Of a stretch of DNA of 64,000 nucleotides, positions 1,117 to 32,506 are shown in pieces. Where the stretch lies: positions 37,199 through 101,198 of the forward strand of contig SVQF01000001.1 of assembly GCA_015065445.1 (NCBI GenBank), read 5' to 3'. The position numbers were made by a program, and so were the translations under genes. Under the pieces are notes generated by a model. That model searched no databases, had not been told where the DNA came from, and saw only the letters and a list, made by a program, of their open reading frames with translations. Positions within the stretch are counted from its first letter, which is position 1, and each line of letters starts with the position of its first letter. The DNA is from Oscillospiraceae bacterium. GTDB taxonomy: Bacteria > Bacillota > Clostridia > Oscillospirales > Acutalibacteraceae.

Positions 1117-1136
1117 GTTAGGAGGAAAGATTAACT

Positions 1137-9543: not shown

Positions 9544-11232
9544 ATGGCACATATAACAGGTTTTGAAAGTCTTGAAAAGATAAAGAAAATATATCCGTGC
9601 TTTGATTTGACAACAAGAAAGTTTTCCAATATCAAAGGGACAAAATTTCACGGTGGAATACCGCTTTTATATGATTCGGAAACAAAACGTTTATACATTG
9701 ATGCAAGCGATACGCACAGTTTGGTTTACGGCTCTACAGGTTCTTTGAAAACAAGAGCGATAGTATCTCCAGGTATAAAAGTACTGGGCTATGCCGGAGA
9801 GTCAATGATCATAAATGATCCTAAAGGAGAACTTTTTGCTCGACATGCCGGAGATTTGAAAAAGCAAGGATATAACATAGTTGAGATCAATTTTCGTGAC
9901 CCAAGTGTAGGAAATTCGTGGAATCCTCTTTACATTCCTTATCAGTTTTATATAAACGGCGATATTGATAAATCAGCGGAATTCATTAACGATATTTCAA
10001 ATAATTTAATGGTCAGCGACCGCTCCACTGACGATCCTTTTTGGGATTTTTCAGCGTCTGACCTTCTTTACGGCTTAATTCAACTCTTGTTTAGATATTG
10101 TAAAGATCATGATGCGCCTATCAACGCAGTAAATATTGGAAACCTCATAGCGTTACGAAGAGCGCTTTTCTCAGGTAAACAGCAAGCACAGAACACAGTT
10201 CTATGGAAATATGCCTCAGAAGATGAGCTCGTGGCAGCAAGCCTGTCTGGAAGTGTCTATGCACCGAGAGATACAATGAACAGTATTTTAAGCGTTTTTG
10301 ATCAAAAAATGCGCTCATTTACTATTCAACCGACACTGTTAGACATGCTTGCAAATAACGATTTTGATATTGCAGGCATTGGCAAGACAAAAACCGCCGT
10401 CTTTCTAATTACACCGGATGAAAAGACAAGCTATCATCGACTTGTTTCGATGTTTGTAAAAGAGAGTTATGAATATTTAATATATTTGGCAACACAGACG
10501 GAGGACAATAAGGTTGAAAACCGAATCAACTACATTTTAGATGAGTTTTCTTCTCTTCCGCAGATTGCAGATATGCCTTCAATGATAAGCGCTGCAAGAA
10601 GTCGTGATATTAGGTTTTTACTTGTTGTACAAAGCCAGTCCTCGCTCAAACAACGCTATTCTGAGGAAGCGGAGACAATAATTTCCAACTGTACTAATTG
10701 GATTTTCTTTACAAGCCGTGAATTAAGCCTGCTCAAGGAAATCTCCGAATTATGTGGAACACAAAAAAATCAAATGCCAAATATCAGCGTATATGATTTA
10801 CAGCATTTAAACAAAGAAAGACGTGAAGCGTTGATTCTGTCCGGGCGGCTTAAACCTGCCAAAGTTAATATGCTTGACATTGACAAATTCGGCGATCGAA
10901 CATATACACTTCTTTCTCACGAGCATCGCGAACGGCTAAACAGAGAAAAATTGACATTCGAGTTGAGGGAAGATATTAAAAGCAAGTATATTTCACAAAT
11001 GCCAACCAATCCGTTTCTAGATGGCAATCCCTTTAGTAGTATGTCAACGGATGATTTACATGAAAATACTTCTAAGCCAAAAAACAGTGATGTAGAAGTA
11101 GATGATATACTTAAACGAATTGATCAACGCATTGCAGAACTCGAAAAAGAGGAAGCCGAAGAACAGGAAGGTAAGGATTCACCAGATACTACTGACAGTC
11201 CTGAATCAAATAACGATAAGAAAGGAGAATAG
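9544..11232 (+). CDS. Soluble VirD4/TraG-family NTPase (no N-terminal TM anchor), paralogue 1
   Basis: P-loop-like GSTGSLKTR, then WNPL, Walker B YILDEFSSLPQI and AARSRDIRFLLVVQSQSSLKQRY. The first 60 aa contain no hydrophobic helix. The C-terminal tail is acidic. Confidence 0.85.
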   Translation: MAHITGFESLEKIKKIYPCFDLTTRKFSNIKGTKFHGGIPLLYDSETKRLYIDASDTHSLVYGSTGSLKTRAIVSPGIKVLGYAGESMIINDPKGELFARHAGDLKKQGYNIVEINFRDPSVGNSWNPLYIPYQFYINGDIDKSAEFINDISNNLMVSDRSTDDPFWDFSASDLLYGLIQLLFRYCKDHDAPINAVNIGNLIALRRALFSGKQQAQNTVLWKYASEDELVAASLSGSVYAPRDTMNSILSVFDQKMRSFTIQPTLLDMLANNDFDIAGIGKTKTAVFLITPDEKTSYHRLVSMFVKESYEYLIYLATQTEDNKVENRINYILDEFSSLPQIADMPSMISAARSRDIRFLLVVQSQSSLKQRYSEEAETIISNCTNWIFFTSRELSLLKEISELCGTQKNQMPNISVYDLQHLNKERREALILSGRLKPAKVNMLDIDKFGDRTYTLLSHEHRERLNREKLTFELREDIKSKYISQMPTNPFLDGNPFSSMSTDDLHENTSKPKNSDVEVDDILKRIDQRIAELEKEEAEEQEGKDSPDTTDSPESNNDKKGE

Positions 11233-11235
11233 ACA

Positions 11236-12276
11236 ATGAGTGCAGAACGTGAAATAATTATTGAAAACCACGAAGACAATTCCAGCGTAGATGATAATGT
11301 TCAGTTTCAGGAATATAAAGTTAATATTCCTGTCAGCAATGCGAGTGTAAAAGCTCAAACTTATTTAGAATATATTTATAAATTGGAGGACGATGATGCA
11401 CGACAGGATCTATATGATTTGATAAACAAATTTTTGAGTCAAGATCAGCAGTCGGGAGATGCAGATGATTTTCATAATTTCGCTGTAGACCTCGCTCGTC
11501 GCGATGAGTATGCACTTGCCTGCCAGATCATTGAATGCGGTTTAAAATTGTTTCCCAAAAATGTGGATTTGCTTTCGGATTATCTTCAATATGGTGTTAG
11601 TTGCAACAAGCTAGAGGAATGTAAAAAGATGTACAAGACGCTTGTTAAAATTCCCCGCAGAAGATGGACTTGGCGCGGATTTGCATTTCTTATTGATTAT
11701 CTTCAATTTTTGGTAGACCGCAGTGATTCCGAAAAAGAGATAGATGCAAAAGAAGAAGAGATGTTATCGGTTGTAAGCGACTTTAAAAAGCAATTCCCCT
11801 ATAGCGAAGATTCTTACAGAACAGAAGCAAACGTGTATCGTAGTCTAAACATGCCTGACAAAGAGACTGAAGCTTTGAAACAAGCATTGGAGCATCTGCG
11901 AATAGCTCCAAAATGTGCACTCAGATATGCTGATATAATGTTTGAACGCGGATTGTATGAGGAAGCTTCAGTAGCTATACGCCGTGCGATAAGTGATGCT
12001 ACTCAAACACAAACAAGCGTAAACGAAGGTTATCTTTATTATTTGTCTGCTCTATGTAAAATTGCGACTTCACAAAAAACAAATATGGATTTGGATTTGG
12101 ACGAGGATGCTGTAGAAGCAATTTATTCGGATTTCAATATTGCTCTTTCAAAATTCCAAGATACCAAAAACAGTTATATAGATGTAATACGCACAAAAAC
12201 CAACACTATAATTAATAAAACAGGCATAGAGGTTGATCCAAAATACGATCTCCTTTGTGAATATCTTGACAATTGA
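11236..12276 (+). CDS. TPR-like alpha-helical repeat protein
   Basis: 346 aa with repeated about-34-aa helical-hairpin patterns (..YALACQIIECGLKLFPKNVDLLSDYLQYG.., ..ALRYADIMFERGLYEEASVAIRRAI..). Confidence 0.55.
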   Translation: MSAEREIIIENHEDNSSVDDNVQFQEYKVNIPVSNASVKAQTYLEYIYKLEDDDARQDLYDLINKFLSQDQQSGDADDFHNFAVDLARRDEYALACQIIECGLKLFPKNVDLLSDYLQYGVSCNKLEECKKMYKTLVKIPRRRWTWRGFAFLIDYLQFLVDRSDSEKEIDAKEEEMLSVVSDFKKQFPYSEDSYRTEANVYRSLNMPDKETEALKQALEHLRIAPKCALRYADIMFERGLYEEASVAIRRAISDATQTQTSVNEGYLYYLSALCKIATSQKTNMDLDLDEDAVEAIYSDFNIALSKFQDTKNSYIDVIRTKTNTIINKTGIEVDPKYDLLCEYLDN

Positions 12277-12306
12277 TATTTTGGTGAAAGAAATTTTGAG
12301 GAAGAT

Positions 12307-13029
12307 ATGAGCATTGAAAACAATAAATCTCTCCAACAAGCTTGGTTAAGCGATAGGAAAAAAGAGTGGGAGAATATATCTGAGAGTAAAGACTTTGAGG
12401 ATGTTTCGTCTTTTTTTCACAACATAATCGACCATGCATCCAAAATTGATGAATCATCCTTGGTCTTGGAGTTCTTACTTTTTCTTGAATCGTGTTATAA
12501 AGAAATAAATGGATTTCCAAATATTTTATTTGGACTATATGGTCTTACCTCTTTGGGCCTAAGTGCATATAAAAATCACGAATACCAAAATGCTGAAGTT
12601 GCGTTTAGAATTCTTTCAGATAGTGGCGATTCTAACGGCCTAAACAATTATGCCTACATGATGCGCAGAGGTGAAATATCTGACCCAGAAAATAATTCAC
12701 CGTTAAAGGCTCTCAAAATTCTAAGAGAGGAATTTTGCAACACTGAACCATTTATGTGTATTAATATATCCTTAACCCTTGCTCTTTGTTATGGAACGGA
12801 TAACGATTGGCATCTTGCGGATGATATAATAAAACTAATACCCAACAATAATGTTTCAGGTGTAATAAACTGGTGGTCAGATATTGAAAATGTCGGAACA
12901 ACTGAATGTTTAGTAGTTCATTTGTTATTGTTACGAAACAAACTCATTGAAGAAAGTACATTTGGAACAAAAGAGGAAATAATAAAAAAACTAAAGAAAG
13001 AAAAATTTAATATACCTAAATGGATTTAG
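12307..13029 (+). CDS. Sel1-like/TPR repeat protein
   Basis: GDSNGLNNYAYMMRRGE resembles a Sel1 repeat core. Confidence 0.5.
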   Translation: MSIENNKSLQQAWLSDRKKEWENISESKDFEDVSSFFHNIIDHASKIDESSLVLEFLLFLESCYKEINGFPNILFGLYGLTSLGLSAYKNHEYQNAEVAFRILSDSGDSNGLNNYAYMMRRGEISDPENNSPLKALKILREEFCNTEPFMCINISLTLALCYGTDNDWHLADDIIKLIPNNNVSGVINWWSDIENVGTTECLVVHLLLLRNKLIEESTFGTKEEIIKKLKKEKFNIPKWI

Positions 13030-13035
13030 ATAATT

Positions 13036-13080
13036 AAAAACAGAACGCTCTTTGCAAAAGCAGAGAGCGTTCTGTTTTTG
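13036..13080. terminator. Bidirectional intrinsic terminator closing module A
   Basis: A-run, then an 11-bp stem cagaacgctct / agagcgttctg, then a T-run. Confidence 0.7.
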
Positions 13081-13189
13081 TATATTAGACGAAATAAATT
13101 AGACATTCAGATAAATTGAATTTGTAAAAATTGGAGAAATTAACCACACATACGTATTAAAAAACGAAACTGCAAAAGGAGGTTTTCTG

Positions 13190-13735
13190 ATGTCTACTAT
13201 TACTAAAAAATGGGATGAAAAGAAAATTCGCGACATTATCCGTGCACTTGATGAAAAAACCGGACTTAATGGTGCTGCGTATCCCATTAGACTTACTGAG
13301 TACCAATCAGATGTTTTGAGTTGTTTAGGTTGCTTCATGGCCGTTGGTAAAAATAAAGGATTTAAGTTTGCCATTGATTATTTTAACGATCCTTTTACCA
13401 AAGAAGCTGAAGTGATAGATATAATCCGTCATGAGTATGCACATTATTATACTGATACTGTACAACTTTATAGATATATTAATTATTCACATAGCGAACG
13501 TTCACACGGAGATGCATGGAAATGGGCATGCATAATGGTCGGAGCAGAACCCAAGCGTTACCATGATGTGGAATCGTTCAAGGATAAAAACTGGTCCATT
13601 GATGAAGCAAAAGCTGCGTATAGAGCCGATGACGTGCCTGAATTTAATATACGCAGGGCTATTAGATTCGGAGGGTCGTTAACAACTAATGCAAAGAAAT
13701 TATCTTGGATTTTATTAAATGATAAAATGGGTTGA
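13190..13735 (+). CDS. SprT-like zinc metalloprotease, ending at an in-frame TGA
   Basis: HEYAH (HExxH) followed by SHGDAWKWAC, which matches the SprT pattern HExxH...HGxxWK. TGA at 13733-13735 is followed in the same frame by 67 sense codons (see findings). Confidence 0.75.
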   Translation: MSTITKKWDEKKIRDIIRALDEKTGLNGAAYPIRLTEYQSDVLSCLGCFMAVGKNKGFKFAIDYFNDPFTKEAEVIDIIRHEYAHYYTDTVQLYRYINYSHSERSHGDAWKWACIMVGAEPKRYHDVESFKDKNWSIDEAKAAYRADDVPEFNIRRAIRFGGSLTTNAKKLSWILLNDKMG

Positions 13736-14045
13736 GCGAATGCTTATTATGAACCCGGTGACGAAGTTCTCCATCCCAAAAGGGGCTTTGGAGTTGTCGA
13801 TGATGCAATTCCCTGTGGATACTATGGACAAAAGGTGTATGTTGTTTTTGATGATCATACCGATGGCGTATTTAAAACAGAAGAATTATGCAAAGTTATT
13901 GATGGGGTTGTTATTCCATACAGTACGAAAAAACGATAATAGAAACTCTATTGTGACTTCAATGTCGCAAAAAATGGAGATTTTGGAAGTAGTTTCGTAT
14001 GTAAGAATGGGAACGACCCAATATTCAAATTTCAAATGAGAAAGG

Positions 14046-14651
14046 ATGAAAAGAATGAACAAATATGAATTTAAAGCGACCAATCTTATTGCAGAGGTTT
14101 TTGAAGAGCATGGAGTAAAGTTTGATGTGAAAAATGCACATGGGTTTGAAACTATTGTAGCCGGATTTCCCATTGATGGTGGACCTCTTATTACCGAAGA
14201 ATTCATTAGTAATAGTAATGATAATGATGTAGCAGTAAGAGTTTTTCGCATTGTAACAAACACTCCTGAAGCCAGGAGAACCCGTGCAATGGAGGCGTGT
14301 AATATCTTAAACAAAGAGGTGCGTTGTTTAGAATTTACCATTGATGATGATGGTGACGTTAATGCTTCATATGACTTTTTGAACAGCACTCCCGATGAAG
14401 CAGTGGGAGAAATGGCTCTTGAAATATTTGTACGAACAATGAAAATTCTTGATGACCGATTTTGTGTATTGATGAAGGCAATTTACACAAACGAAGAACT
14501 CAATCAAGAAGAGAAGAAACGCAAACTGGAACTTCTTCGCAGATTTCAGGCTGCTCTTAAGGAGGCAGAGGACAGGAATGACGATGGAGAAGCTAACGAC
14601 GAAGAGCTTGACAATTTCGCCTCGTGGTTAGCTGACGAAGTTGCTAGTTAA
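14046..14651 (+). CDS. YbjN-like (secretion-chaperone-fold) protein with an acidic C-terminus
   Basis: 201 aa. The alternating strand/helix pattern (..FDVKNAHGFETIVAGFPIDGG.., ..FTIDDDGDVNASYDF..) resembles YbjN-family proteins. Confidence 0.5.
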   Translation: MKRMNKYEFKATNLIAEVFEEHGVKFDVKNAHGFETIVAGFPIDGGPLITEEFISNSNDNDVAVRVFRIVTNTPEARRTRAMEACNILNKEVRCLEFTIDDDGDVNASYDFLNSTPDEAVGEMALEIFVRTMKILDDRFCVLMKAIYTNEELNQEEKKRKLELLRRFQAALKEAEDRNDDGEANDEELDNFASWLADEVAS

Positions 14652-14662
14652 ACAGCATAAAA

Positions 14663-14734
14663 TTCCCGCCCGATGAGGTTAGTTGGCGTCTAACCGAAAC
14701 TATGGCAGTATTATTGCTGTCATGGTCGCGGGGA
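14663..14734 (+). ncRNA. Type I hammerhead ribozyme (core CCGAUGA ... GAAA ... GUC)
   Basis: Stem I is 14663-14669 paired with 14728-14734. The core is 14670-14676. Stem II is 14677-14682 paired with 14690-14695. GAA is at 14696-14698. Stem III is 14699-14708 paired with 14717-14726. C17 is at 14727. The only deviation from consensus is C instead of U at core position 4. Confidence 0.7.
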
Positions 14735-14775
14735 GCCATCCGCTTAATAAATAATGTAAATAGGAGGTATTGACA

Positions 14776-15495
14776 ATGTCAAACTACAACTATGGCGATT
14801 ACGAAGAAGTCGCTCCCGAAAACATCAATGAATCTCATATGCCTGTTTTAATCGCAGGTGATATTTCAGGAAGCATGGCGGGTTTACCTATTCAAAATGT
14901 TAACAAGTCAATCAACCGCTTCTCCAGTGATGTTTGTAAGGATTCAAAAGCAGCAGCAAGGGTCGATGTTGCAGTGATTGGATTTAACGATGCTCCTCAT
15001 ATCGAGCAAAATTGGCGACCAATTACTGAAATGAACCCCGTAGAATTCACTGCTGGAGGTGGCACTAACATTTCTGCAGCTCTTGAGAAAGGTGTAAATA
15101 TGCTTCGCGATAGAGGTCACCTTTATGAAGATGTTGGCATCGATGTAAAAATGCCTTATCTAATTCTTATTACTGATGGTTATGGCGGTGATGTTACCGA
15201 GATAGCTGAAGTTATCAAGCAGCGCACGGCTGACCGTAAAATGAAGCTGTGGGTTCTTGCAGTTAAGGGCTATGATAAAGCAACTGTCGCTCAGTTAACA
15301 GATGGTAAACGAGTATTTGAATTAGTTAATGAAGACGGATATGATTTTACTGAATTCTTTGACTTTATGGCAGTTAGTGTAAAAGCCGTTTCAACTAGCG
15401 CACCCGGTCAGGACACTGTTAACGTAAAATCAAACATTGGTCGAGATGGTTCTAATTGTCGTGTTCCCGACCTTGATGCATGGCTTAATGATTGA
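14776..15495 (+). CDS. vWA-domain protein (TerY-like), TerY-P triad component
   Basis: MIDAS motif DISGSM near the N-terminus and ILITDG later on. ATG 14776 follows AGGAGG. Confidence 0.85.
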   Translation: MSNYNYGDYEEVAPENINESHMPVLIAGDISGSMAGLPIQNVNKSINRFSSDVCKDSKAAARVDVAVIGFNDAPHIEQNWRPITEMNPVEFTAGGGTNISAALEKGVNMLRDRGHLYEDVGIDVKMPYLILITDGYGGDVTEIAEVIKQRTADRKMKLWVLAVKGYDKATVAQLTDGKRVFELVNEDGYDFTEFFDFMAVSVKAVSTSAPGQDTVNVKSNIGRDGSNCRVPDLDAWLND

Positions 15496-15503
15496 TATGA
15501 TGC

Positions 15504-15544
15504 TGTGATTCTGACTGAACCAAACTTGTTCAGCCAGAATCACA
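15504..15544 (+). other. Long intercistronic stem-loop between the vWA and PP2C genes
   Basis: tgtgattctgactgaac / gttcagccagaatcaca give 16 of 17 paired positions with a 7-nt loop and no T-run. Confidence 0.5.
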
Positions 15545-15560
15545 TAAACGGAGGTTCACT

Positions 15561-16667
15561 ATGATTATTTATAAAAGTAACATGGCCGGTCCATACCATA
15601 TTGAAAATGGGCTGCCTTGTCAGGACTCATATGCGGTCCTTCAAAGTGAGAACTTTTGCGTTTTAGCTGTAACTGATGGTTTAGGAAGTGAATTATATTC
15701 TGATATTGGTGCTTCCGAGGCCGCTAGTTCCGCTGTCAATTATTGCTCAGAGAATTTATCCGTTAATATGGCTTTTGAGGACATTAAAAAAGTTATGAAC
15801 AATGCCCTTGTATGTGCATATAAAGCTGTACTTGAAAGAGCTGCGTGTGATAATAATGACCCAGATGAATACGATACAACCATGTGTTTGGCTGTTTATG
15901 ACGGTGAACACCTGTACTATGCGCAATCGGGTGACAGCGGGCTTATAGCATTACTGCAAAACGGAGAATACTACCGAGTTACATCTCAACAGCGAGATGA
16001 TGAAGGAAGGGTGTATCCACTGTGTTGGGGTCCGGATAAATGGGAATTTGGATGTGTTAAGTCACCCGTTTCTGCTTTTATGCTGATGACTGACGGAGTC
16101 TTTGAACAGATGTGTCCCCCGATTATGCGAAATCGCGATATTGATATCAATGTTCCTCTTGCCAGAAAGTTTATGGATCACTTTAATGCAACTGAAAATG
16201 ATATATTTGATATTGAAAAGTGGGCACATGAATACCTTGAACACTATCCGAGATATCTTCTTGATGACGATAAAACTATACTTGTGCTAATTAACACCGA
16301 GCGAAAGCCTAAAGAAATGGATGAAGCTTATTATGCAATTCCCGATTGGGAATCCATGAAAACTGAGGCTTTAGAAAAACTATATAACAATTCCGAGGAA
16401 CCTGATAATCAGGATGGTGAAAGAATTGATTCAAATAGTACATCGATAGAGTCAGAAATGTATATTAGCAAAGACGATGAAACATTAACCGACAAGAAAC
16501 CCATTTCAAAAAACAGAATAGAAGCACAAAACAGTGTTGCGAATAATAGCATTGGTGAAAAAATATCAGACGCACAAAATCAATATGATTCTCAGAAAAC
16601 GGGTGATACTGAAACAGCACATTCTTCAGCTATAAATGACGTAAAAAAAAACGACTGTTCAACATAA
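15561..16667 (+). CDS. PP2C-family protein phosphatase, TerY-P triad component
   Basis: CQDSY..AVTDGLGS..GDSG..LMTDGV motifs, with a low-complexity C-terminal extension. Confidence 0.8.
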   Translation: MIIYKSNMAGPYHIENGLPCQDSYAVLQSENFCVLAVTDGLGSELYSDIGASEAASSAVNYCSENLSVNMAFEDIKKVMNNALVCAYKAVLERAACDNNDPDEYDTTMCLAVYDGEHLYYAQSGDSGLIALLQNGEYYRVTSQQRDDEGRVYPLCWGPDKWEFGCVKSPVSAFMLMTDGVFEQMCPPIMRNRDIDINVPLARKFMDHFNATENDIFDIEKWAHEYLEHYPRYLLDDDKTILVLINTERKPKEMDEAYYAIPDWESMKTEALEKLYNNSEEPDNQDGERIDSNSTSIESEMYISKDDETLTDKKPISKNRIEAQNSVANNSIGEKISDAQNQYDSQKTGDTETAHSSAINDVKKNDCST

Positions 16668-16723
16668 CTATAAGCCGAAAATTTAATACATTTGTAATTA
16701 TCGGCCTTTTTCTGTTCGGACTT

Positions 16724-17185
16724 GTGTCATGGCTCTTAAAGTCAGTCATTCAAAAGCATGTGGCAGTTAGTGCTATAGGCATAATGTTAGTGTGTTTCTT
16801 TGCAAATGCATCTGTCCTGCTGCCATCTTCAAGCATTTTCATTGTGGTTGAATACTCTATGATAATTAATCCACTTCTTGTAGCGCTTTGCGGAGCAATC
16901 GGCTCATCACTTGGAGAACTAACAGGATTCTATTTAGGAAGATGTGGAACATCTGTCATTCCAAAAAAAATCACAATATGGATACAAGAAAAGATGTCAT
17001 GTCATAAATACTTAGTTGTGTTTTTATTCTCTGTGTTGCCTTTGCCAATTTTTGATATAGTCGGAATTCTTTCAGGGGCGACAAAAATGAATGCTTTGAA
17101 GTTTTTAGGAATATGTTTCGTCGGAAAACTGATCAAGATGTTATGTTATGTTTGGTTGATGCACGAAATGGTGCTATTTGTTTAA
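16724..17185 (+). CDS. Small DedA/VTT-like polytopic membrane protein
   Basis: 153 aa with four hydrophobic helices. GSSLGELTGFYLGR resembles the VTT/YqaA motif. GTG start. Confidence 0.5.
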   Translation: MSWLLKSVIQKHVAVSAIGIMLVCFFANASVLLPSSSIFIVVEYSMIINPLLVALCGAIGSSLGELTGFYLGRCGTSVIPKKITIWIQEKMSCHKYLVVFLFSVLPLPIFDIVGILSGATKMNALKFLGICFVGKLIKMLCYVWLMHEMVLFV

Positions 17186-17198
17186 AAAGGAGGAATCA

Positions 17199-18785: not shown

Positions 18786-18787
18786 AT

Positions 18788-19072
18788 ATGAAAGATAAGA
18801 TTATTAGAAAACTAATTAAAGATTTGGGATACTCTAATTCCGTTGCTAATAAAACTGCAGACGATTTGTGCAAATTAAAGTATCCCGATTTAAACGACGG
18901 ACTTAAGAATTGGCTTAATACGAATGCGCACACAATGATAATCGACGGAAAATATTCGACTCATATTCTCACAGAAAAATACAATATGACCTATCCTGCC
19001 GCTTTAATCTTTTTGGATTGGTACAGAACCGACCCAAAAACCGCCGCATCAGTGCTGAAAATGCGTATGTAA
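18788..19072 (+). CDS. Small hypothetical protein
   Basis: ATG lies 3 nt after the kinase stop and uses the AGGAGG inside the kinase 3' end. 94 aa. Confidence 0.45.
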   Translation: MKDKIIRKLIKDLGYSNSVANKTADDLCKLKYPDLNDGLKNWLNTNAHTMIIDGKYSTHILTEKYNMTYPAALIFLDWYRTDPKTAASVLKMRM

Positions 19073-19085
19073 AGGCGGTGATGAA

Positions 19086-19754
19086 GTGACCTATAAAGAA
19101 AGCCTTATGCTTATTGGAGATGAATGGGCAACATTAAGTGATGATAAAAAAATAGAAGTATTACAATCAATAGAAAATCACATGGCATTCGAATCGAACC
19201 GTATGTCTGTACCTGTGGAAGGCAAATTTCTTTATACTGGGACCGACGGAATAGTGTTAGGAGAATATGATCCTGGCAAAGGATGTATTTACGTTAACAC
19301 TTCTCAATTCGATTCAGAGTCTATGTATGGAAAGGATTCTTCGACCTTAGTTACAACGTGCCTGCACGAGGGTCGACACGCATATCAACACCAAGTTGCA
19401 AATGGAACAGTTGCACATGACAATCTAGAAGAAGCAGAAGTATGGCGGGAAAACTTAAATGGTGAAAATTATATATCGTTTGAAGACAATCCTAGAGGAT
19501 ACTTTGAACAGCCGGTGGAAGTAGACGCAAGAGACTTTGCAAGCAATCGTTATAATGAGCTGTTATCGGAGCGACAAGTAGAAATCGAACATCAAACGGA
19601 CTACCATTGTGCAAAAAATGTATTTGAAGAACAAATCAGCAATGCAGAAAACGGCGAATCAAATCTAGCAGCAGATTACCACCAGGTTGATGACCTTAAC
19701 AAGTCACAAGAATTATCTTCAGTTGCGAATACAGAGGAAACAATCCATCAGTAA
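19086..19754 (+). CDS. Putative zincin-like metallopeptidase (HExxH)
   Basis: CLHEGRHAYQH motif. GTG start. Confidence 0.45.
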   Translation: MTYKESLMLIGDEWATLSDDKKIEVLQSIENHMAFESNRMSVPVEGKFLYTGTDGIVLGEYDPGKGCIYVNTSQFDSESMYGKDSSTLVTTCLHEGRHAYQHQVANGTVAHDNLEEAEVWRENLNGENYISFEDNPRGYFEQPVEVDARDFASNRYNELLSERQVEIEHQTDYHCAKNVFEEQISNAENGESNLAADYHQVDDLNKSQELSSVANTEETIHQ

Positions 19755-19824
19755 GAATATGGAGATTCGATTCGCTATCCCGTATATAAACTTTAGATAA
19801 TTCCGATGAAAGGATTGAACCAAA

Positions 19825-21144
19825 ATGATTATTCGTAAAACAATGCTATATGGTAATTCCGTGAACGATAACGCTTTAACTGCACTTTGCTCTAAACCAC
19901 TAATTATTATCCCGGGTGTTACAAATGGGAAACAAACCTTTGTTGGATTCACTGAAGACACGCTCCATATGCATACTCTATTTATGGGCGGAACAGGTTC
20001 CGGAAAAACGAATACATTCTGTCATCTTATACCGCAGTTGCAAAGAAAAATGACAAACAATGATGTCATGTTGGTATTTGATTCTAAACAAGATTTTGAG
20101 CAATTTCACAGAGAAGATGATTATGTAATCAGCTATCGAGCTCAGAGTAAAGGTGAAAAAGAAACCTGGAACCTGTTTCGTGATGTTATAGCAGACGGAT
20201 GGGAAAAAGAAAGTATCATTATGAATGCAGATGAAATAGCGGACGTTATTTTTTCAAAGGCAATAAACGAGAGTTCCCAACCGTTCTTTCCAAGAGCCGC
20301 AAAAGATATCTTTGCCGCAATCATTAAGGGAATGTGTTTCATTGGAATCACCGACAAAGATTACAGAATTAATTATATGAATAACAAAGCTCTAATTAAG
20401 TATCTTACAGCTTTAAATGCAGAAAAACTGCATGCATTTTTAACAAATATACCAGAACTTGCAGGTGTGCTTAAGTATATAGGTAATGGAAAATCAGAGC
20501 AAGCCCTTGGAGTATTTGCGGAACTCCAATCTGTAGTTGGACACATCTTTACAAGAAATTTTGCTGAAGATGGTCGTTTTTCAATAAGGAAAACGGTTCA
20601 ACAAAAAAATGGTCGTACGCTATTTATAGAATATGATCCTTCAAGAGGAGTGTCTTTGCGCCCAATATATCAGTTGCTTGTTGACCTGTTTTTAAAAGAA
20701 GCCTTAACTCCAAAAGACGGTACAAAAGGTAATGTATTCGTTATTTGTGATGAACTGAAAATGCTTCCCTTTCTTAATCATCTTGAAGATGCACTAAATT
20801 TTGGTAGATCGCTTGGGGTTTCAGTTATTGCCGGCATTCAGAGTATGGAACAATTATATGAAGTATATGGAGAATACGGTGGCAAAAACATTGCTTCCGC
20901 GTTTCAGACGGTATTTTGTTTTCATACAAATGACGTTGCTTCTCGGCAGTACATAAAAGGAATGTTTGGAGAAAACAAATCGGTTATTCAATATATGACG
21001 CCTTCTGGAAAAACCATTGAAGAACAACACAGTGGATATAGTGTTGAAGATTGGGATATAACGAACCTAAATAAAGGAGAGGCCATAGTCGGCATGCCAT
21101 ATCAATTGCCATTTAAGATTAAAATAAAAAAATATGGAGGATAG
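19825..21144 (+). CDS. Soluble TraD/VirD4-like P-loop NTPase, paralogue 2
   Basis: Walker A GGTGSGKT, Walker B VFVICDELKML, and SVIAGIQSMEQL. No TM helix. Confidence 0.75.
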   Translation: MIIRKTMLYGNSVNDNALTALCSKPLIIIPGVTNGKQTFVGFTEDTLHMHTLFMGGTGSGKTNTFCHLIPQLQRKMTNNDVMLVFDSKQDFEQFHREDDYVISYRAQSKGEKETWNLFRDVIADGWEKESIIMNADEIADVIFSKAINESSQPFFPRAAKDIFAAIIKGMCFIGITDKDYRINYMNNKALIKYLTALNAEKLHAFLTNIPELAGVLKYIGNGKSEQALGVFAELQSVVGHIFTRNFAEDGRFSIRKTVQQKNGRTLFIEYDPSRGVSLRPIYQLLVDLFLKEALTPKDGTKGNVFVICDELKMLPFLNHLEDALNFGRSLGVSVIAGIQSMEQLYEVYGEYGGKNIASAFQTVFCFHTNDVASRQYIKGMFGENKSVIQYMTPSGKTIEEQHSGYSVEDWDITNLNKGEAIVGMPYQLPFKIKIKKYGG

Positions 21145-21149
21145 GAAAA

Positions 21150-22427
21150 ATGGGTGGAAAAGTCAACACTGTTTTGTCATTGGTCGCTGCACTAATAGAC
21201 CGTTCCAATCGTAAAAAAGCGAGAAAAAGAATAAACTTGCTAAACGAACAAAACCGAAACATTCAAATGCTTGGAAGCTCAACTACAGAACATATTATCC
21301 CTAGTAATTACCAAATGGGTAATATAAGCATTTCCGGAGGTACTACAGATATTCGAAATGCATTAATAATTCAAAATTGCAAGCAAAGCGTATCATTGGG
21401 GGTTCCAACAATAATAATACATGAAGGCAACTATCTTTTAGAACAACTATTGCAATCTACATTTTCAAATCATCGATATTTGAGAATAATTAACCCTAAT
21501 AACCCATATTATGAGCCGCTCTTTAGATTAAGCGACATGGAGATTGGTCATTTCATATCTGATTCTTCCTTAAAAGAACACAAAATCGGATCAAATGGTG
21601 CATTATATGTAAGTGCACTCTCGACTATTCTTCGCAAAAAGGGTATAACACCATACACCAGAATGTTTGCAAACTGTCCCCATGGTTCTATTAACAATTT
21701 AATTGTAAATATGGAAAACTCTGGTATCATATCCGCAAATGAAGCTGATAAATTAAGAAACGAAGTATTGTTGGGAATAAAAGAGCAAGCTGAAGTTGAG
21801 TATTTTTTTCAACAAACAGAACTTGAATCTCCTATTTTAGCATGGAAAAGCAATCTTTCAAAATGCACTTCCGTTTCTGAATGCATTTTGAGGAACGGAA
21901 TCATGTCTTTAGATATTTCCAGTTGTGGAAACCAGAATCAATTATCGTTAATATCTACTGAAATTAATAATTGTAAAAGAACAGGAACACAATTTAGAAT
22001 AATTGTTGATGCGGTATCATTTTATGGAAATGACAAATTAATTCAAGTTCTAAAAAACACGTCGGGTTCAGCCTCATGGACTATTTCATCTCCAGACATT
22101 GACTGTATGCTTGGAAATACTCCGGGAGAACTTGCCACTTGGTTGGCTTTGTCACACAGAGCAATACTGTTTTCACATGGAATTAAAACATGTGAATTAT
22201 TATCTGCTGAATTAGGAGAATATGAACATATAGATGTAGTTGAGTCGCATGCAGGAAACAATAATATCGGAAGGATTGGCTATCATTATGGTGCTAATTC
22301 TAGTTTTAGCACATCTGAAAAAAGGAAACGAGTTATTAAACCTGAAGAAATCGAATCTCTTGAAAGCAACGAATTCATTATGCTAGATAATTATACAGCG
22401 ACAATTAGCAAAGGGACATTGGTTTAA
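21150..22427 (+). CDS. Hypothetical protein, possibly a P-loop-degenerate paralogue of the preceding NTPase
   Basis: By eye, SGGTTDIRNALIIQN..PTIIIHEGNYLLEQL aligns with GSGKTNTFCHLIPQL..VMLVFDSKQDFEQF of the 19825 protein, and FRIIVDAVSF occupies the Walker B position. Confidence 0.5.
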   Translation: MGGKVNTVLSLVAALIDRSNRKKARKRINLLNEQNRNIQMLGSSTTEHIIPSNYQMGNISISGGTTDIRNALIIQNCKQSVSLGVPTIIIHEGNYLLEQLLQSTFSNHRYLRIINPNNPYYEPLFRLSDMEIGHFISDSSLKEHKIGSNGALYVSALSTILRKKGITPYTRMFANCPHGSINNLIVNMENSGIISANEADKLRNEVLLGIKEQAEVEYFFQQTELESPILAWKSNLSKCTSVSECILRNGIMSLDISSCGNQNQLSLISTEINNCKRTGTQFRIIVDAVSFYGNDKLIQVLKNTSGSASWTISSPDIDCMLGNTPGELATWLALSHRAILFSHGIKTCELLSAELGEYEHIDVVESHAGNNNIGRIGYHYGANSSFSTSEKRKRVIKPEEIESLESNEFIMLDNYTATISKGTLV

Positions 22428-22428
22428 A

Positions 22429-23463
22429 ATGGAGACAATGAAAGACTTTAATAATAGTTTGGCTGGCTACATTGCAAAAAACCAATACAGATACTACTAC
22501 ACCACTCTCTCAGTCAAAATGCAAAATGCTTATAGTATTTTGCTTGATGGATATTTGAAGCACAAAAGAGATATCAAGGTTAATGTAGGTAATATCGAAG
22601 ACGCTTGGTTAGTTCATAGAGCGCTTTGTTATGATGTTCCAGAATTGTTTTTTATCAAATCAATCAAGGCAGCTTTTAATCCAGTAAACACAACGGTTAC
22701 TGTCTACCCGGAATACCGTTTCGATTATGAGACTTGTATTAGCATTATTAAGAACATGGAACAACAAACAAAGCCTTTAATAAAAAAAATATCAATGTTT
22801 TCAGAACAAGAGAAGGTTAAGGCAATACACGATTACATAGTAGAAACAGTTACATATAAAGATTTAGACGCTCCATATAGTCATGAAGCTCCAGGAGCTA
22901 TTCTATATGGCATTGCAGTATGCGAAGGGATTTCGAAAGCATTCAAGTTTTTAGCAGATAGAGCAAATATCAACTCCATAGTCCTTATCGGAGAAGCAGT
23001 AGACGGAGGAACTTATCGTACGGCAAACGAATCTGGTCATGCTTGGAATATTGCAGTTATAAATTCCGTATCTTATCACATTGATGTAACCTTTGATTAC
23101 TCACTTTCAAAAGGAAAAACTATCCGTTACGATTATTATCTTTTATCCGATAATCAAATACAAAATGATCATAAATTTAAACCTACTTTTAATTGTCGTT
23201 GCGATTACGAACACTATATATCAAACGGACACTACGCAGATAGCAGAAAAAAACTTCAACATCTTGTAAAAAATGAACTAAAAGTAGGAGGAAAACCACT
23301 TGTAATCAAAGTTCCAAATGTTTTTGAAAGCGAAAAACAAGCATCCGAATTATTATTGCAAATCGTCGTATCTGCAATTCCCATGTCATATAAACTAAAG
23401 TCTACAGTTTCTTTATCGTACAACTGGATGCGAATGATTTATCAAATCGAATTAAGCTGCTAA
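22429..23463 (+). CDS. Transglutaminase-like cysteine protease-fold protein
   Basis: Cys in GIAVCEGISKAF, His in GHAWNIAV and Asp in HIDVTFD, which together make the Cys-His-Asp triad arrangement. Confidence 0.8.
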   Translation: METMKDFNNSLAGYIAKNQYRYYYTTLSVKMQNAYSILLDGYLKHKRDIKVNVGNIEDAWLVHRALCYDVPELFFIKSIKAAFNPVNTTVTVYPEYRFDYETCISIIKNMEQQTKPLIKKISMFSEQEKVKAIHDYIVETVTYKDLDAPYSHEAPGAILYGIAVCEGISKAFKFLADRANINSIVLIGEAVDGGTYRTANESGHAWNIAVINSVSYHIDVTFDYSLSKGKTIRYDYYLLSDNQIQNDHKFKPTFNCRCDYEHYISNGHYADSRKKLQHLVKNELKVGGKPLVIKVPNVFESEKQASELLLQIVVSAIPMSYKLKSTVSLSYNWMRMIYQIELSC

Positions 23464-23530
23464 AAACATCTCTAATTAATGAAACAATAAATAGCGTTAA
23501 ACAATTTAAAGGTTAATTGCTGTGCTAATT

Positions 23531-23583
23531 AAAATCCCGATTCATGATTTATCGATGATGCGATAACAGAATCGGGATTTTTG
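23531..23583 (+). terminator. Intrinsic terminator closing the 13.2-23.5 kb gene array
   Basis: aaatcccgattc / gaatcgggattt form a 12-bp stem followed by TTTTT. Confidence 0.65.
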
Positions 23584-23685
23584 ATGTCCTAAAAGCCCTG
23601 AAACGGGTGCAACAATAAAAACCTCTTGGAGAAAAATAGTGTTACTGCGTATTTATAAATAACAACTCAGAAAAGGGTGATAAAA

Positions 23686-23871
23686 ATGAAAACTATTCAA
23701 GATTACGATTTTTCCTGCGTAGCAAATCACAGAGCTGAAAACATCGAACAAATGCCTCACTCACTACTAATTGCTTCTGAAAAGAAAATCTATGTTCCCG
23801 AAAATAGAATTATTCTGTTGGACCAAATGAGTGAACAAGAATCTCAAATTATAAACAGAATAGTATTTTAA
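23686..23871 (+). CDS. Small hypothetical protein (61 aa)
   Basis: ORF with a weak ribosome-binding site, isolated in a 550-bp spacer. Confidence 0.3.
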   Translation: MKTIQDYDFSCVANHRAENIEQMPHSLLIASEKKIYVPENRIILLDQMSEQESQIINRIVF

Positions 23872-24020
23872 TTGACTAATAATGCTGAAATTAATATGCA
23901 CATTTTGACAAAATGGAGATTTTCTTGATGCTCCGTATATATAGATGAAGAGAATAATAGTTTTTCAAATCAAGGTTCAACTAAATTGCTCAATATTAAA
24001 ATACAAAAGGAGAAAACCAA

Positions 24021-24593
24021 ATGATTAGAGATCCAAACATTGTTGTTACACATAATGGAGAGGCACAAATGGTAACGCCGAGAGACAACCTCTATATTAA
24101 GAACCGAATGGTTTTTTTGACAGGAGAAATTGATCAAGATTTATCCTTATCAATTATTTCACAGTTATTATATTTAGATAATGAGTCAAATGAAGATATT
24201 GTGCTCGTTATCAATTCGGGCGGAGGCAGTATTAGTGATGGCTTTGCAATTCTTGATGTCATGAACAGTCTAGATTCTGATGTGGAAACAGTGTGTTCTG
24301 GAATGTGTGCAAGCATGGCAGCAATTTTACTTGCCGGTGGTACTAAAGGGAAGCGAAAGGCGTATAAAAACGCAGAGGTAATGATACATCAGCCACTTGG
24401 AGGTATTAAGGGTCAAGCAAGCGACATCGAGTTGACTGCAAAACATATCTTAAGCAGAAAAGATGCGCTTAACACCTTGCTTGCTGAAAGCTGTTGTAAA
24501 GAAAAAAACATTATTGCCACAGATACTGACAGAGATAACTGGATGACAGCAGCAGAAGCATTAGAGTATGGGCTAATTGATGAGATTATTTAA
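24021..24593 (+). CDS. clpP: ClpP-family serine protease, full catalytic triad
   Basis: GMCASMAA (Ser), MIHQPLGG (His) and TDRDNWM (Asp). 190 aa. Confidence 0.9.
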   Translation: MIRDPNIVVTHNGEAQMVTPRDNLYIKNRMVFLTGEIDQDLSLSIISQLLYLDNESNEDIVLVINSGGGSISDGFAILDVMNSLDSDVETVCSGMCASMAAILLAGGTKGKRKAYKNAEVMIHQPLGGIKGQASDIELTAKHILSRKDALNTLLAESCCKEKNIIATDTDRDNWMTAAEALEYGLIDEII

Positions 24594-24604
24594 GGAGGTA
24601 AACC

Positions 24605-25378
24605 ATGATTCGTGATATTAAGGAACCTGCAGGACTTGACTCTGTTAAATGCACCGTTAAAAACATCTGTAGCGAAGCCGCAAAATATAGATTCCGCCAT
24701 CCTGCAAGCATGATTATTTATCTTAATGAAAAGCAAGGGCGCAGCACCGTTGCTGAATATATCACAGATATGTTCTTTGTTCACAAGGTAATGGATTTTT
24801 CAATGTCCAGAAGTGAGTTTATTGAGCTTGATTTCAATGGAGAGTATAAACAATTCAATGACTGCATGAAACAAGTTAACGATGCAGCCGATTATACAAA
24901 CGATGACAAATATTCAAATGTTCTCGTTGAAACAGGCATCAACAACCTTTCTAAGCATCTCGGCGAACAGCACGTTGATGATTATTTAAATCATGTTGAA
25001 ACAATGTCTAAAACTGCTGTACTTGTGATTTTTGTTAGCGAAAACCCTAATTCAAAAGAAAGTCAGCTCATAGATAGAATTAAAGAAGTACTTCCTTTTG
25101 CCAATATAATCAAGCCACATGAATATAGTGTGGAAGATTATTGCAAAGTCATAAAGGAAAAACTTTGCGATTATGGCGTTATTGTTCCTAAAAACACACC
25201 GTTAAATGAGATCGTAAAGAAATCAATGAATAAAGATAAGTCTTTCAATATGAAAGATGCATGCTTAATTGCCGAGGAACTATTTCTTGGTTCAAAACTA
25301 GTAAATGGGAAACTGAAGGTTGATGTTTCAGCAATTAATTCGCCCAAAACAGACAGGGTAATAGGAGGAAAATCATGA
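24605..25378 (+). CDS. Hypothetical protein, module C
   Basis: 257-aa ORF with an AAGGAGG ribosome-binding site. Its stop overlaps the next start (ATGA). Confidence 0.6.
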   Translation: MIRDIKEPAGLDSVKCTVKNICSEAAKYRFRHPASMIIYLNEKQGRSTVAEYITDMFFVHKVMDFSMSRSEFIELDFNGEYKQFNDCMKQVNDAADYTNDDKYSNVLVETGINNLSKHLGEQHVDDYLNHVETMSKTAVLVIFVSENPNSKESQLIDRIKEVLPFANIIKPHEYSVEDYCKVIKEKLCDYGVIVPKNTPLNEIVKKSMNKDKSFNMKDACLIAEELFLGSKLVNGKLKVDVSAINSPKTDRVIGGKS

Positions 25379-26979
25379 GCAGATATGAAAGGTTCTCTGA
25401 AGAGAAAGAGCTAAATAAAAACTTTCCATTAGCGGGTAAAGGGGTAAGCGGATTACCCGTTTACTATGATAAGAAACGACAGCTACACTGTGATCCGGGA
25501 CCAGCGCATGCACTTATTACAGCTACAACTGGCTATGGTAAAACATATGGTGTATCATTATCAGCTATCATGAGATGTATTGAGGCAACTGAAAGCTTTG
25601 TTGTTATTGATTCAAAGAAAGATGCACTTAGGCACACATTTAATGCCGTTCCGGAAAATTATCAAAAATTTGTTTTCGATTTTAGCAAGCCTGCCGAATC
25701 TCCTGACAAGTGGAATCCGCTTGAATTAATTCGTGTTCAATTAACCTCATCCGATATTACAGAACAGGACCTTGGATACGAAAATCTTAATGCGTTCACA
25801 GTTGGCTTGCCCGATAAAGATAAGGATTCATTTTGGCCAAATAGTTCCACAGAATTATTAACTGGAACTGCAGAAGCGTTAATTGAATCATCAAACGATC
25901 CTCGCGAGGTTCACATGGGGAGTATTTGCAGAATTCTTAGGGACGGCAACGAAAGATTTGGCGGAAATATTCTTCTTAAAAGTTTTTATGACTCGTTGTC
26001 CGATGATTCACTTGCGAAGCAACATCTTGGTACTTTTGTGAATGCTCCAAATGATACTAGAAACTCTATCTATGCTGTAACTTCAACAGCTTTATCGGTG
26101 TTCACAAGAAGCAGAGGCTTATTGCAAATGATTTCTCAAGATACAATTGACATTGCTCACCTTGATAATAGCGAGTCTCCAGTTGCCATTTATATATGTT
26201 TACCTGATGAAAACAATGTACATGCGAAATTGGCGGGGTGTTTAATTCAACAATTATCGCAGCAATTTATTAAATTAGCTCGTTCTCAGCCTGATGGAAA
26301 GCTGAAAAATCGAATTAGCTTTATTTTAGAGGAATTAGGTTCTATTGGAGGTTCAATTCCAAATTTAGCAAACCTCATGACAGCCGGTCGCTCTCGAGGA
26401 ATAAGAATGGTCCTTATATTGCAGAGTTTATCTCAACTTGATGCTATCTATGGTGAATCTGCAGAAGCAATTAAAAACTGTATCGGTATTACATATAGTT
26501 TTTCAAACAACAACTTAGATACGCTTAAAGAATTCAGCGAAAAATGCGGTTATTGTAATGACAAAGATTTGTTAATAACTCCTACACAGCTTTCAGCAAT
26601 GCCTCCTCTACAGTGCCTTGTTATTCTTTACAACAGATATAAATTCATCAGTAAATTTGAATTCTTTACTGATGTCTATAAAGTGGAAGAATATACTCCG
26701 TCAGGTCAAGAAAGAGAAAAAATTGAAAAAGCAGTTAATTCAATTAAGTATTTCAATATTAAGGAGTATGTAAAAAAAGCAAGGGAGAGAGCGCAAGTGG
26801 AAGCAATAAGAAAGAATAACGAGTTAAATCCATTTGCACAGCCGCACAGTCTTCCCTCTTCTTGTCCTAGCGATCCAATAATGCCTGATGATATAGACAT
26901 AGAGGAGTTAGTGAAAAAAATAGATGAGGAAATCGCCAAAAGAGAAAGAGAAATTGAAAGTGAGAGAAATGATGAATAG
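25375..26979 (+). CDS. Soluble VirD4/TraG-family NTPase, paralogue 3
   Basis: Walker A ATTGYGKT, then WNPL, FILEELGSIG and TAGRSRGIRMVLILQSLSQLDAIYG. No TM anchor. The acidic C-terminal tail resembles that of the 9544 protein. Confidence 0.85.
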   Translation: MSRYERFSEEKELNKNFPLAGKGVSGLPVYYDKKRQLHCDPGPAHALITATTGYGKTYGVSLSAIMRCIEATESFVVIDSKKDALRHTFNAVPENYQKFVFDFSKPAESPDKWNPLELIRVQLTSSDITEQDLGYENLNAFTVGLPDKDKDSFWPNSSTELLTGTAEALIESSNDPREVHMGSICRILRDGNERFGGNILLKSFYDSLSDDSLAKQHLGTFVNAPNDTRNSIYAVTSTALSVFTRSRGLLQMISQDTIDIAHLDNSESPVAIYICLPDENNVHAKLAGCLIQQLSQQFIKLARSQPDGKLKNRISFILEELGSIGGSIPNLANLMTAGRSRGIRMVLILQSLSQLDAIYGESAEAIKNCIGITYSFSNNNLDTLKEFSEKCGYCNDKDLLITPTQLSAMPPLQCLVILYNRYKFISKFEFFTDVYKVEEYTPSGQEREKIEKAVNSIKYFNIKEYVKKARERAQVEAIRKNNELNPFAQPHSLPSSCPSDPIMPDDIDIEELVKKIDEEIAKREREIESERNDE

Positions 26980-32490: not shown

Positions 32491-32506
32491 ATTGTTGAGG
32501 GAGAAA

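Follow-up and report, generated by a model that had tools for sequence, protein, structure and literature searches.

Coupling proteins of the VirD4 family are treated as signature genes of conjugation, and type IV coupling proteins (T4CPs) without a membrane anchor as well as FtsK/HerA-class ATPases in defence operons have already been published. A class of T4CPs lacking the transmembrane domain (TMD) is recognised and is typified by TraJ of pIP501, which has the membrane partner TraI (PMC7434980). CoCoNuT defence operons contain EssC-like and VirB4-like ATPases that lack an anchor and have TerY-like vWA genes on either side (PMC11090510), and these CoCoNuT/TerY-P operons are the closest published precedent for the locus described here. 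In MADS, mad6-mad8 are needed for phage defence (bioRxiv 10.1101/2023.03.30.534895), and the subject of the Sorokina 2021 preprint is the 595-aa VirD4 encoded in the type IV secretion system (T4SS) locus of CTn4. Here, we analysed 64,000 nucleotides (the window) of the contig SVQF01000001.1 of an Oscillospiraceae bacterium (GCA_015065445.1, positions 37,199 to 101,198), in which a Tn1549-family integrative and conjugative element (ICE) occupies positions 1 to ~53,000 with its right-hand part. The window encodes three VirD4-family proteins without a membrane anchor, named D4_1, D4_2 and D4_3. Based on gene context, we think it rather probable that all three are ATPase subunits of non-transfer, conflict-type cytoplasmic modules carried by the ICE as cargo. 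Gut Firmicutes have three or more widespread lineages without an anchor, which track their own gene partners and ignore VirB4. The three genes are as follows.

9544-11232, + strand: D4_1, soluble VirD4-like ATPase of 562 aa (Pfam, NCBIfam; no transmembrane helix)
19825-21144, + strand: D4_2, soluble TrwB-like ATPase of 439 aa (Pfam TrwB_AAD_bind, 7e-38)
25375-26979, + strand: D4_3, soluble VirD4-like ATPase of 534 aa (Pfam; no transmembrane helix); 4-nt overlap between its start and the p257 stop

An earlier note on this DNA had described the three as VirD4-family paralogues, and all of them do match PF02534, PF10412 and PF12696 (Pfam; E 1e-13 to 1e-41). Transmembrane (TM) helices were searched for by Kyte-Doolittle hydropathy in 19-residue windows (KD19) with a threshold of 1.6; as a control, the expected helices were recovered in VirB6, PrgI, the sortase, the kinase and the M50 peptidase. 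The maximum KD19 was 1.19 for D4_1, 1.42 for D4_2 and 1.37 for D4_3, and thus the scan found no missed helix in any of them. A longer N-terminus is impossible because in-frame stops lie 4 (D4_1), 2 (D4_2) and 12 (D4_3) codons before each ATG. The lack of an anchor is therefore confirmed, as is the closeness of the P-loops to the N-terminus, with starts at residues 63, 55 and 51, respectively. All three genes lie, as previously noted, outside the T4SS operon, downstream of the visible T4SS genes VirB6, PrgI, VirB4 and NlpC/P60. D4_1 and D4_3 can be aligned end to end with 28% identity, C-terminus included, and D4_2 shows remote similarity to both. The idea of a single expansion of three paralogues did not hold, since D4_2 belongs to a distant TrwB-like lineage and the three genes sit in different modules.

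The immediate neighbours of these genes encode the proteins p447, TPR346, p222, p425, p257 and p315, none of which has a TM segment in the hydropathy scan; a TraI-like anchor protein is thus not adjacent. TraJ of pIP501 is, like the D4 proteins, a VirD4-family ATPase without a membrane anchor (PMC7434980), but it is encoded in the tra operon beside a small membrane partner and serves transfer, whereas the D4 genes have soluble neighbours and stand outside the T4SS operon. The premise that an anchorless protein is not a T4CP had to be given up, since TMD-less T4CPs such as TraJ exist, and the argument for a non-transfer role must therefore rest on context and not on the missing anchor. The genes of the modules are closely spaced (gaps of 12, 3, 11 and 5 nt and one 4-nt overlap). 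Nonsynonymous divergence (pN) was 0.12-0.26 against saturated synonymous divergence (pS), which indicates purifying selection; pN and pS are given instead of dN/dS because synonymous sites are saturated.

D4_1 (module 1) differs from transfer proteins in its context. The genes at this end of the window are as follows.

7139-8038, - strand: p299, divergent soluble protein at the left edge of the cassette, present in 11/27 D4_1 loci
8188-9531, + strand: p447, fast-evolving soluble protein, always the gene immediately before D4_1, 12-nt gap
11236-12276, + strand: TPR346, starting 3 nt past the D4_1 stop, weak Pfam TPR matches
12307-14651, + strand: variable inner cargo comprising p240, SprT-like Zn-peptidase, p106 and YbjN/TY-Chap1 (Pfam), which recur in some D4_1 loci
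13190-13735, + strand: the SprT-like Zn-peptidase of this cargo
14046-14651, + strand: the YbjN/TY-Chap1 chaperone-like protein of this cargo

Scoring covered the 8000 best candidates and gave at least 2879 D4_1 homologues of ~550 aa. One genome per species was then scanned for relatives, and the resulting 72 loci were subjected to open reading frame (ORF) analysis and to tblastn with all window proteins. The relatives split cleanly into a soluble group (n = 44 species, at least 39% identity to D4_1) and a TM-bearing group (n = 20 species, 32-41% identity), the latter consisting of uncultured Bacilli, several of whose proteins end in DDEYFDDFF. The soluble group has no convincing TM helix (six marginal internal segments, KD 1.6-1.8) and its P-loop lies at residue 63-80 (later in a few proteins whose called start is upstream of the likely one), whereas the TM-bearing group has one or two N-terminal helices and a P-loop at residue 94-159. 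The Walker A motif of D4_1, GSTGSLKT, has Leu at the position of the conserved Gly. The residue before the Walker Lys is Leu in 18, Lys in 23, Met in 1 and Gly in none of the 44 soluble proteins (motif not found in 2), while it is Gly in 20/20 TM-bearing relatives. D4_1 orthologues do not vary at the other residues of the nucleotide-binding domain (NBD), among them the Walker Lys/Thr and the DE of Walker B (LDEF in D4_1), and pN of 0.12-0.14 lies far below the saturated pS.

Gene partners divide the two groups in the same way. A TPR346 gene lies directly downstream in 30/32 soluble species (of 34 at ≥45% identity) compared with 0/16 TM-bearing ones, and VirB4 was found within 7-10 kb upstream in 0/25 soluble (≥45% identity) and 15/17 TM-bearing loci. 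The TPR346 family profile matches the peptide-binding TPR domain of kinesin light chain (E = 4e-4). A gene of 330-470 aa stands at the p447 position in six loci (L001, L003, L006, L007, L010 and L077), and p299 homologues in D4_1 loci are likewise upstream on the opposite strand; p447 has no match in Pfam, PHROG or PADLOC, and p299 has no domain match. In a complete chromosome (L007) the cassette abuts guaA, MatE and other housekeeping genes, and in L077 it abuts PTS and CinA genes. Relatives of the soluble proteins occur in chromosomal islands and on non-mobilizable plasmids without VirB4 nearby. We found no D4_1 clade with a lost P-loop Gly and a TPR partner in the searchable literature.

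Two other views of this family were tried and dropped. The NCBIfam model NF045973 ('CD1115 family', cutoff 250) scores D4_1 at 257.9, D4_3 at 187.3 and D4_2 at 62.7, but it does not define an anchorless family: it spans the soluble domain only, and its best match is the anchored T4CP of the ICE itself (517 bits, compared with 244-260 for the D4_1 clade). Passing its cutoff therefore indicates 'T4CP-derived' and does not imply an equal function. A phage origin was likewise rejected, as PHROGs gave no meaningful matches for the ATPases or their partners and IMG/VR contributed 3 loci.

D4_3 is the last gene of a triad (module 2), the other two members of which are given below.

24021-24593, + strand: ClpP-family serine protease (Pfam CLP_protease, 3e-62)
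24605-25378, + strand: p257, pseudo-AAA+ protein with a predicted CbbX/SpoVK-like fold (AlphaFold2 and Foldseek)

D4_3 has a canonical Walker A (TTGYGKT) and the Walker B LEEL, and it carries the C-terminal helix motif described below. Orthologues occur in eight loci (L001, L007, L014, L015, L019, L035, L077 and L170), and most orthologues examined keep the Walker GxGK[ST] and LEEL. The Ser-His-Asp triad of ClpP is intact (GMCASMA, IHQP, DTDRD) and is also kept in most orthologues examined. p257 has no Pfam match, and sequence-only searches of the PDB were not significant. A word-indexed search retrieved 1 homologue of p257, while an exhaustive HMMER search retrieved 153 representatives. An AlphaFold2 model built with 62 homologues (pLDDT 91) had CbbX, RuvBL1/2, DnaA, RFC, ClpX and RuvB as its top Foldseek matches (E ~1e-6). 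A motif census of these homologues showed another residue in place of the Walker A Lys in 62/62 (Arg in 42, Gln in 16, others in 4) and found no Walker B acidic pair. From the model and these motifs, p257 is predicted to be a catalytically dead pseudo-AAA+ protein. Its PIGL motif was considered as a ClpP-docking IGF/IGL loop and rejected as part of an ordinary 'GL..VK' signature, which we take to be the N-terminal signature of SpoVK/CbbX-type AAA+ proteins and which fits the top Foldseek match.

The order of modules 1 and 2 recurs. In five loci (L001, L002 and L077-L079), genes for ClpP, a ~250-aa protein and a D4_3 homologue come within 2-3 kb after the D4_1-TPR pair, and in five others (L007, L014, L015, L019 and L035) the same order is kept with more cargo between. 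D4_1 and D4_3 are therefore two ends of one cassette, which in the window is split by ~11.7 kb of inserted cargo. Two p257 homologues at 23-25% identity (L170 and L172) are likewise preceded by a ClpP gene; the next gene encodes a 599-aa VirD4-like protein in L170 and is cut by the contig end in L172. Since L170 has no D4_1-TPR pair in the 6 kb upstream, the ClpP triad is also a unit of its own. In L055, a ClpP gene lies directly 3' of a soluble VirD4-like gene from a different subclade. As with ClpXP and ClpAP, genes for a ClpP with an intact triad and for an AAA+-fold protein stand side by side here; however, the AAA+ protein here is predicted to be dead, and the only competent motor in the operon is the RecA-fold VirD4-like ATPase. 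Neither a pairing of ClpP with a VirD4-like motor nor a ClpP/pseudo-AAA+/VirD4-like triad was found in the searchable literature.

Several D4_3 orthologues (L014, L015, L019 and L077, ~610 aa) have an extra C-terminal domain of ~75-85 residues, which follows the helix motif where this is detectable, so that the helix is internal and not terminal there. In a very common gut contig (L077-L079, 17739-20918), a gene for a 1059-aa FtsK_SpoIIIE protein and small ORFs come after the D4_3 homologue; this protein is a third FtsK/HerA-class ATPase of the cassette and possibly a link to systems like the type VII secretion system.

D4_2 belongs to a kinase-containing set of genes (module 3) as follows.

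14770-15495, + strand: vWA protein (Pfam VWA)
15561-16667, + strand: PP2C phosphatase (Pfam PP2C_2)
16724-17185, + strand: VTT membrane protein (Pfam)
17178-18785, + strand: Ser/Thr kinase with three C-terminal TM helices (Pfam Pkinase)
18788-19072, + strand: protein of ~94 aa, forming with p222 a pair that precedes D4_2
19086-19754, + strand: p222, acidic protein of 222 aa with a HEGRH zinc-metallopeptidase motif
21150-22427, + strand: p425, D4_2 partner of 425 aa, 5-nt gap, following D4_2 in most loci that are long enough
22429-23463, + strand: transglutaminase-like (papain-fold) protein (Pfam Transglut_core)

D4_2 has a canonical Walker A (GGTGSGKT), and the solved structure that matches it best is TrwB (PDB 1e9r, 2.9e-18, residues 247-365). 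Its size is close to that of the engineered TrwB of R388 without the first 70 residues (437 aa, the protein in this structure); in contrast to that fragment, D4_2 is naturally anchorless and is linked to p425, the transglutaminase-like protein and the kinase/PP2C/vWA genes instead of a relaxosome. We obtained 1235 homologues, and the 120 full-length ones listed have 430-444 aa. Contexts were compared in public assemblies and in 80 loci from gut and other metagenomes. D4_2 and its ~425-aa partner were accompanied by transglutaminase-like, kinase, PP2C, vWA and VTT genes in variable order, and VirB4, VirB6 and PrgI had no match in any of these loci, with 85 D4_2 loci counted. More distant D4_2-like genes are carried by non-mobilizable megaplasmids (Paenibacillus, Curtobacterium) and by plasmids of haloarchaea. 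The pair of the ~94-aa protein and p222 also precedes D4_2 in ten loci (L017, L034, L088-L094 and L169); p222 has no Pfam or PADLOC match. An ORF called at 18626-19072 covers the last 160 nt of the kinase gene, and its homologues align only from Met55 on; the true gene probably spans 18788-19072 (94 aa), like the 94-aa gene in L088 and L089.

The transglutaminase-like gene is found again in two settings, with D4_2 modules and immediately before ClpP in D4_1/D4_3 cassettes. In L007 and L010, a vWA-PP2C-kinase-transglutaminase set lies between D4_1-TPR and ClpP without D4_2 or p425, which shows that the sub-modules are separable. p425 aligned with a broad VirD4 alignment in register from Walker B to the end of the NBD (hhalign, E = 3.6e-4, probability 37%), its best PDB profile match was Cag5 (E = 0.16), and its single-sequence AlphaFold2 model reached a pLDDT of 34. 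It may be a degenerate VirD4-like pseudo-ATPase, which would make it the fourth VirD4-like gene of the window. A clear paralogue of D4_2 it is not, as BLASTP and hhalign showed no similarity to the D4_2 family.

The vWA/PP2C/kinase set (14770-18785) is, by its domains, a TerY-P-like phospho-switch. As in TerY-P, the vWA, PP2C and Ser/Thr kinase genes are adjacent and an anchorless FtsK/HerA-class ATPase stands beside the vWA genes. The set differs in its ATPase, which resembles VirD4/TrwB instead of EssC or VirB4; in its kinase, which has three TM helices at the C-terminus, whereas the TerY-P kinase is fused to an OB fold or zinc ribbon (PMC11090510); and in its additional VTT membrane protein and transglutaminase-like protein. 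With regard to MADS, D4_2 is mad8-like (1.6e-16) and the kinase weakly mad6-like (8.7e-5) in PADLOC, but no methyltransferase, specificity subunit or mad7 equivalent is adjacent here, and the mad8 match may reflect only the TrwB-like fold because the mad profiles derive from HHpred/PDB alignments. The searchable literature yielded no VirD4/TrwB-like ATPases in defence-operon roles.

The ICE has a coupling protein of its own. The T4SS genes visible in the window are the following.

274-1116: VirB6 (Pfam)
1137-1517: PrgI/VirB3 (Pfam)
1450-3816: VirB4 (Pfam)
among the T4SS genes before the accessory region: sortase and Cys-rich VLP protein (Pfam)
5041-6798: NlpC/P60 protein (Pfam)

Contig L080 is 100% identical to window positions 1-2983 and reaches 8.8 kb further left, where it encodes NikA, a relaxase (PF03432), DUF3801, ArdC-N, a 604-aa T4CP and a TrbC-like protein ahead of VirB6 and PrgI. 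The order relaxase-DUF3801-ArdC-N-T4CP-TrbC-like-VirB6-PrgI-VirB4 matches the Tn1549 gene order of Faecalibacterium ICEs (PMC12084326). The T4CP gene ends 125 bp upstream of window position 1, and its product has TM helices at residues ~11-29 and 61-79 (KD19 2.85 and 2.62) and the Walker A GGSGSGKT at residue 140. The ICE therefore combines a single canonical VirD4-family gene with three that lack an anchor. The D4 proteins have in common with Tn1549/CTn4-type T4CPs (the family modelled by NF045973) the NBD, the all-alpha core and the Pfam families, but they have no N-terminal TM helices and no linkage to VirB4 or a relaxase, and D4_1 in addition has no P-loop Gly. A neighbour-joining tree gave a monophyletic soluble D4_1 clade, sister to TM-bearing Bacilli T4CPs, with the D4_3 clade separate, the D4_2 clade remote and the ICE's own T4CP apart from all. 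As the soluble proteins thus form three separate clades, the anchor appears to have been lost at least twice, and probably three times.

The earlier note had also seen a similar, distinctive acidic tail in D4_1 and D4_3. The similarity is real: D4_1 ends in an amphipathic helix followed by an acidic tail, and a tail hidden Markov model (HMM; consensus D[IV]D.L[IV]KKID.KIAELE.EE) scores D4_1 at 33 bits and D4_3 at 24 bits and matches many members of the D4_1 clade as well as members of the D4_3 clade. It is not distinctive, however, because the same HMM gives 21-31 bits in TM-bearing, VirB4-linked T4CPs of uncultured Bacilli (L042, L044, L045, L047-L049, L051, L052 and L057), in which the helix lies ~70 residues before an acidic-aromatic C-terminus, and a weak 6.7 bits in L037. 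The HMM did not find the helix in D4_2 or in the ICE's own T4CP. Because it scores equally in TM-bearing, VirB4-linked coupling proteins, the helix appears to be inherited in this T4CP lineage and not invented by the soluble copies, and the suggestion of a special docking or regulatory feature of soluble copies falls, since bona fide TM-bearing coupling proteins carry it too.

Taken together, the best reading of the gene context is that cytoplasmic modules of a conflict type took up the coupling-protein fold on at least two occasions. This reading draws on the module composition, since proteases, a phospho-switch, pseudo-enzymes and a patchy occurrence on mobile elements and islands are what conflict systems typically show. 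The previously suggested recruitment to a non-transfer role stands insofar as the proteins are supernumerary, anchorless and found in contexts away from transfer, but it was not one expansion. The conflict could be defence or competition between mobile elements; for any specific mechanism our confidence is much lower. We infer the physical interactions, substrates and biological role of all modules. Modules 1 and 2 usually bracket variable cargo, and module 3 is nested in that stretch here. In module 1 (p447, D4_1 and the TPR protein), D4_1 would act as a nucleotide-dependent sensor or scaffold, slow or regulated, whose peptide-binding partner is the TPR protein. In module 2, a hexameric D4_3 motor would engage a DNA- or protein-borne substrate, and the pseudo-AAA+ p257 would couple this motor to active ClpP for proteolysis. 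In module 3, D4_2 would be a DNA-sensing or effector ATPase under phospho-control. In a more specific and doubtful version, ClpP, p257 and D4_3 would form a new ATP-dependent protease with a coupling-protein-derived hexamer of the FtsK/HerA class, in place of an AAA+ unfoldase, as the motor that engages the substrate; it would act as a decoy that captures and destroys relaxase-DNA complexes or further T4SS substrates of rival conjugative elements, or phage terminal proteins, with D4_1-TPR as sensor or regulator; a cytoplasmic decoy coupling protein is possible because D4_3 keeps the substrate-docking helix of coupling proteins.

Several observations weigh against a conflict role away from transfer, and some of them also speak for the strongest rival, namely that the three proteins are accessory coupling or adaptor ATPases that bind to the canonical membrane T4CP, or form mixed assemblies with it, and bring in further protein substrates (anti-defence or polyvalent proteins, peptidases), with the TPR and YbjN-like proteins as chaperones. 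The window cassette lies inside the ICE near the T4SS genes, ~5.7 kb from VirB4, and D4_1 and D4_3, which keep the helix of VirB4-linked T4CPs, could still bind relaxosome or substrate partners through it. A TPR protein and a YbjN/TY-Chap1 chaperone-like protein are encoded nearby, and proteins of both kinds are also typical secretion chaperones. D4_2 loci are often ICE cargo or cargo of integrative and mobilizable elements (IMEs), with a MobL relaxase, a 645-aa anchored T4CP, an integrase and LPD domains nearby. Among window proteins, no module matched a known defence system in PADLOC, and the vWA and PP2C proteins had no PADLOC match at all. The visible flank was 10 kb per relative locus, so that a more distant T4SS is possible there, and the tree (85 sequences, 501 columns) carries no support values. 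TMD-less T4CPs working in transfer are known, with TraJ of pIP501 as the example (PMC7434980), as are multi-subunit coupling complexes such as DotL-DotM-DotN-IcmSW (PMC12857230). Still, we regard accessory coupling as unlikely: VirB4 was within 7-10 kb in none of the 25 D4_1-clade loci, in contrast to 15 of the 17 TM-bearing ones, the cassettes also stand beside chromosomal housekeeping genes and on non-mobilizable plasmids, no membrane partner is adjacent, the tight linkage to ClpP and to kinase/phosphatase genes has no counterpart in known coupling complexes, and D4_1 has lost its P-loop Gly.

The proteins might instead be the coupling proteins of IMEs nested in the ICE, each with its own relaxase and hijacking the pore of the host ICE. 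Firmicutes IMEs often carry their own coupling protein (PMC12084326), and the cassette is found in several genomic contexts, like a mobile unit; we nevertheless consider this very improbable, as the window has no relaxase, oriT-type accessory gene or integrase in or beside modules 1-3, IME coupling proteins described so far are anchored or TcpA-type, and the conserved partners (TPR, ClpP, AAA+, kinase) are not mobilisation genes. Finally, functionless, decaying remnants of duplicated coupling-protein genes, to which the lost N-terminal anchor and the deviant D4_1 Walker A would point, are effectively refuted by the conservation data, that is, by intact full-length ORFs, hundreds to thousands of homologues of uniform length, invariant NBD motifs, pN far below pS and partner genes kept across dozens of species.

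The three anchorless ATPases have consequences for annotation. ICE/IME detection pipelines and NCBI annotation would call all three conjugal transfer proteins, and counting anchorless lineages as coupling proteins would lead to misclassified elements. The lineages suggest that the T4CP motor, which translocates DNA and protein, has entered cytoplasmic systems repeatedly, one of them linked to a ClpP protease and one to a eukaryote-like kinase/phosphatase switch. If the modules are systems of defence or inter-element competition, this would be a new motor class for that field and, if true, a testable link between conjugation machinery and immunity.

Further observations concern the surroundings of the modules and the right part of the element. 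Directly after the D4_3 cassette, 28047-31052 encodes a 1001-aa SNF2/ResIII helicase with DrmD/BrxH-like PADLOC matches, possibly an anti-defence or defence helicase of the ICE. It is followed at 31178-33641 by an M50 peptidase and three small multi-TM ORFs; a similar M50 set, accompanied by a radical SAM gene, is found 3' of the D4_2 modules of L088 and L089, which suggests a linked peptide-maturation or export unit. In L085 (3076-6432), a group II intron (reverse transcriptase/maturase) interrupts the gene of the 645-aa anchored T4CP of an IME, which is intact in L086. After the T4SS genes and the long accessory region, the ICE continues with a Type III restriction-modification-like pair, LexA/ImmA-like regulators, a PemK toxin and an integrase. 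The restriction-modification-like pair (38166-42377) consists of a methylase and a ResIII protein, and the LexA-like S24 peptidase and ImmA/IrrE M78 peptidase (42634-44290) are likely the regulatory switch of the ICE. The integrase is listed below.

50553-51752: tyrosine integrase

G+C climbs from ~0.35 to ~0.46 near 54 kb, and this jump marks the right end of the ICE; no tRNA gene was found within the 64-kb window. At 49466-51752, the tyrosine integrase is preceded by a PemK/MazF toxin domain in an unusually long protein of 259 aa.

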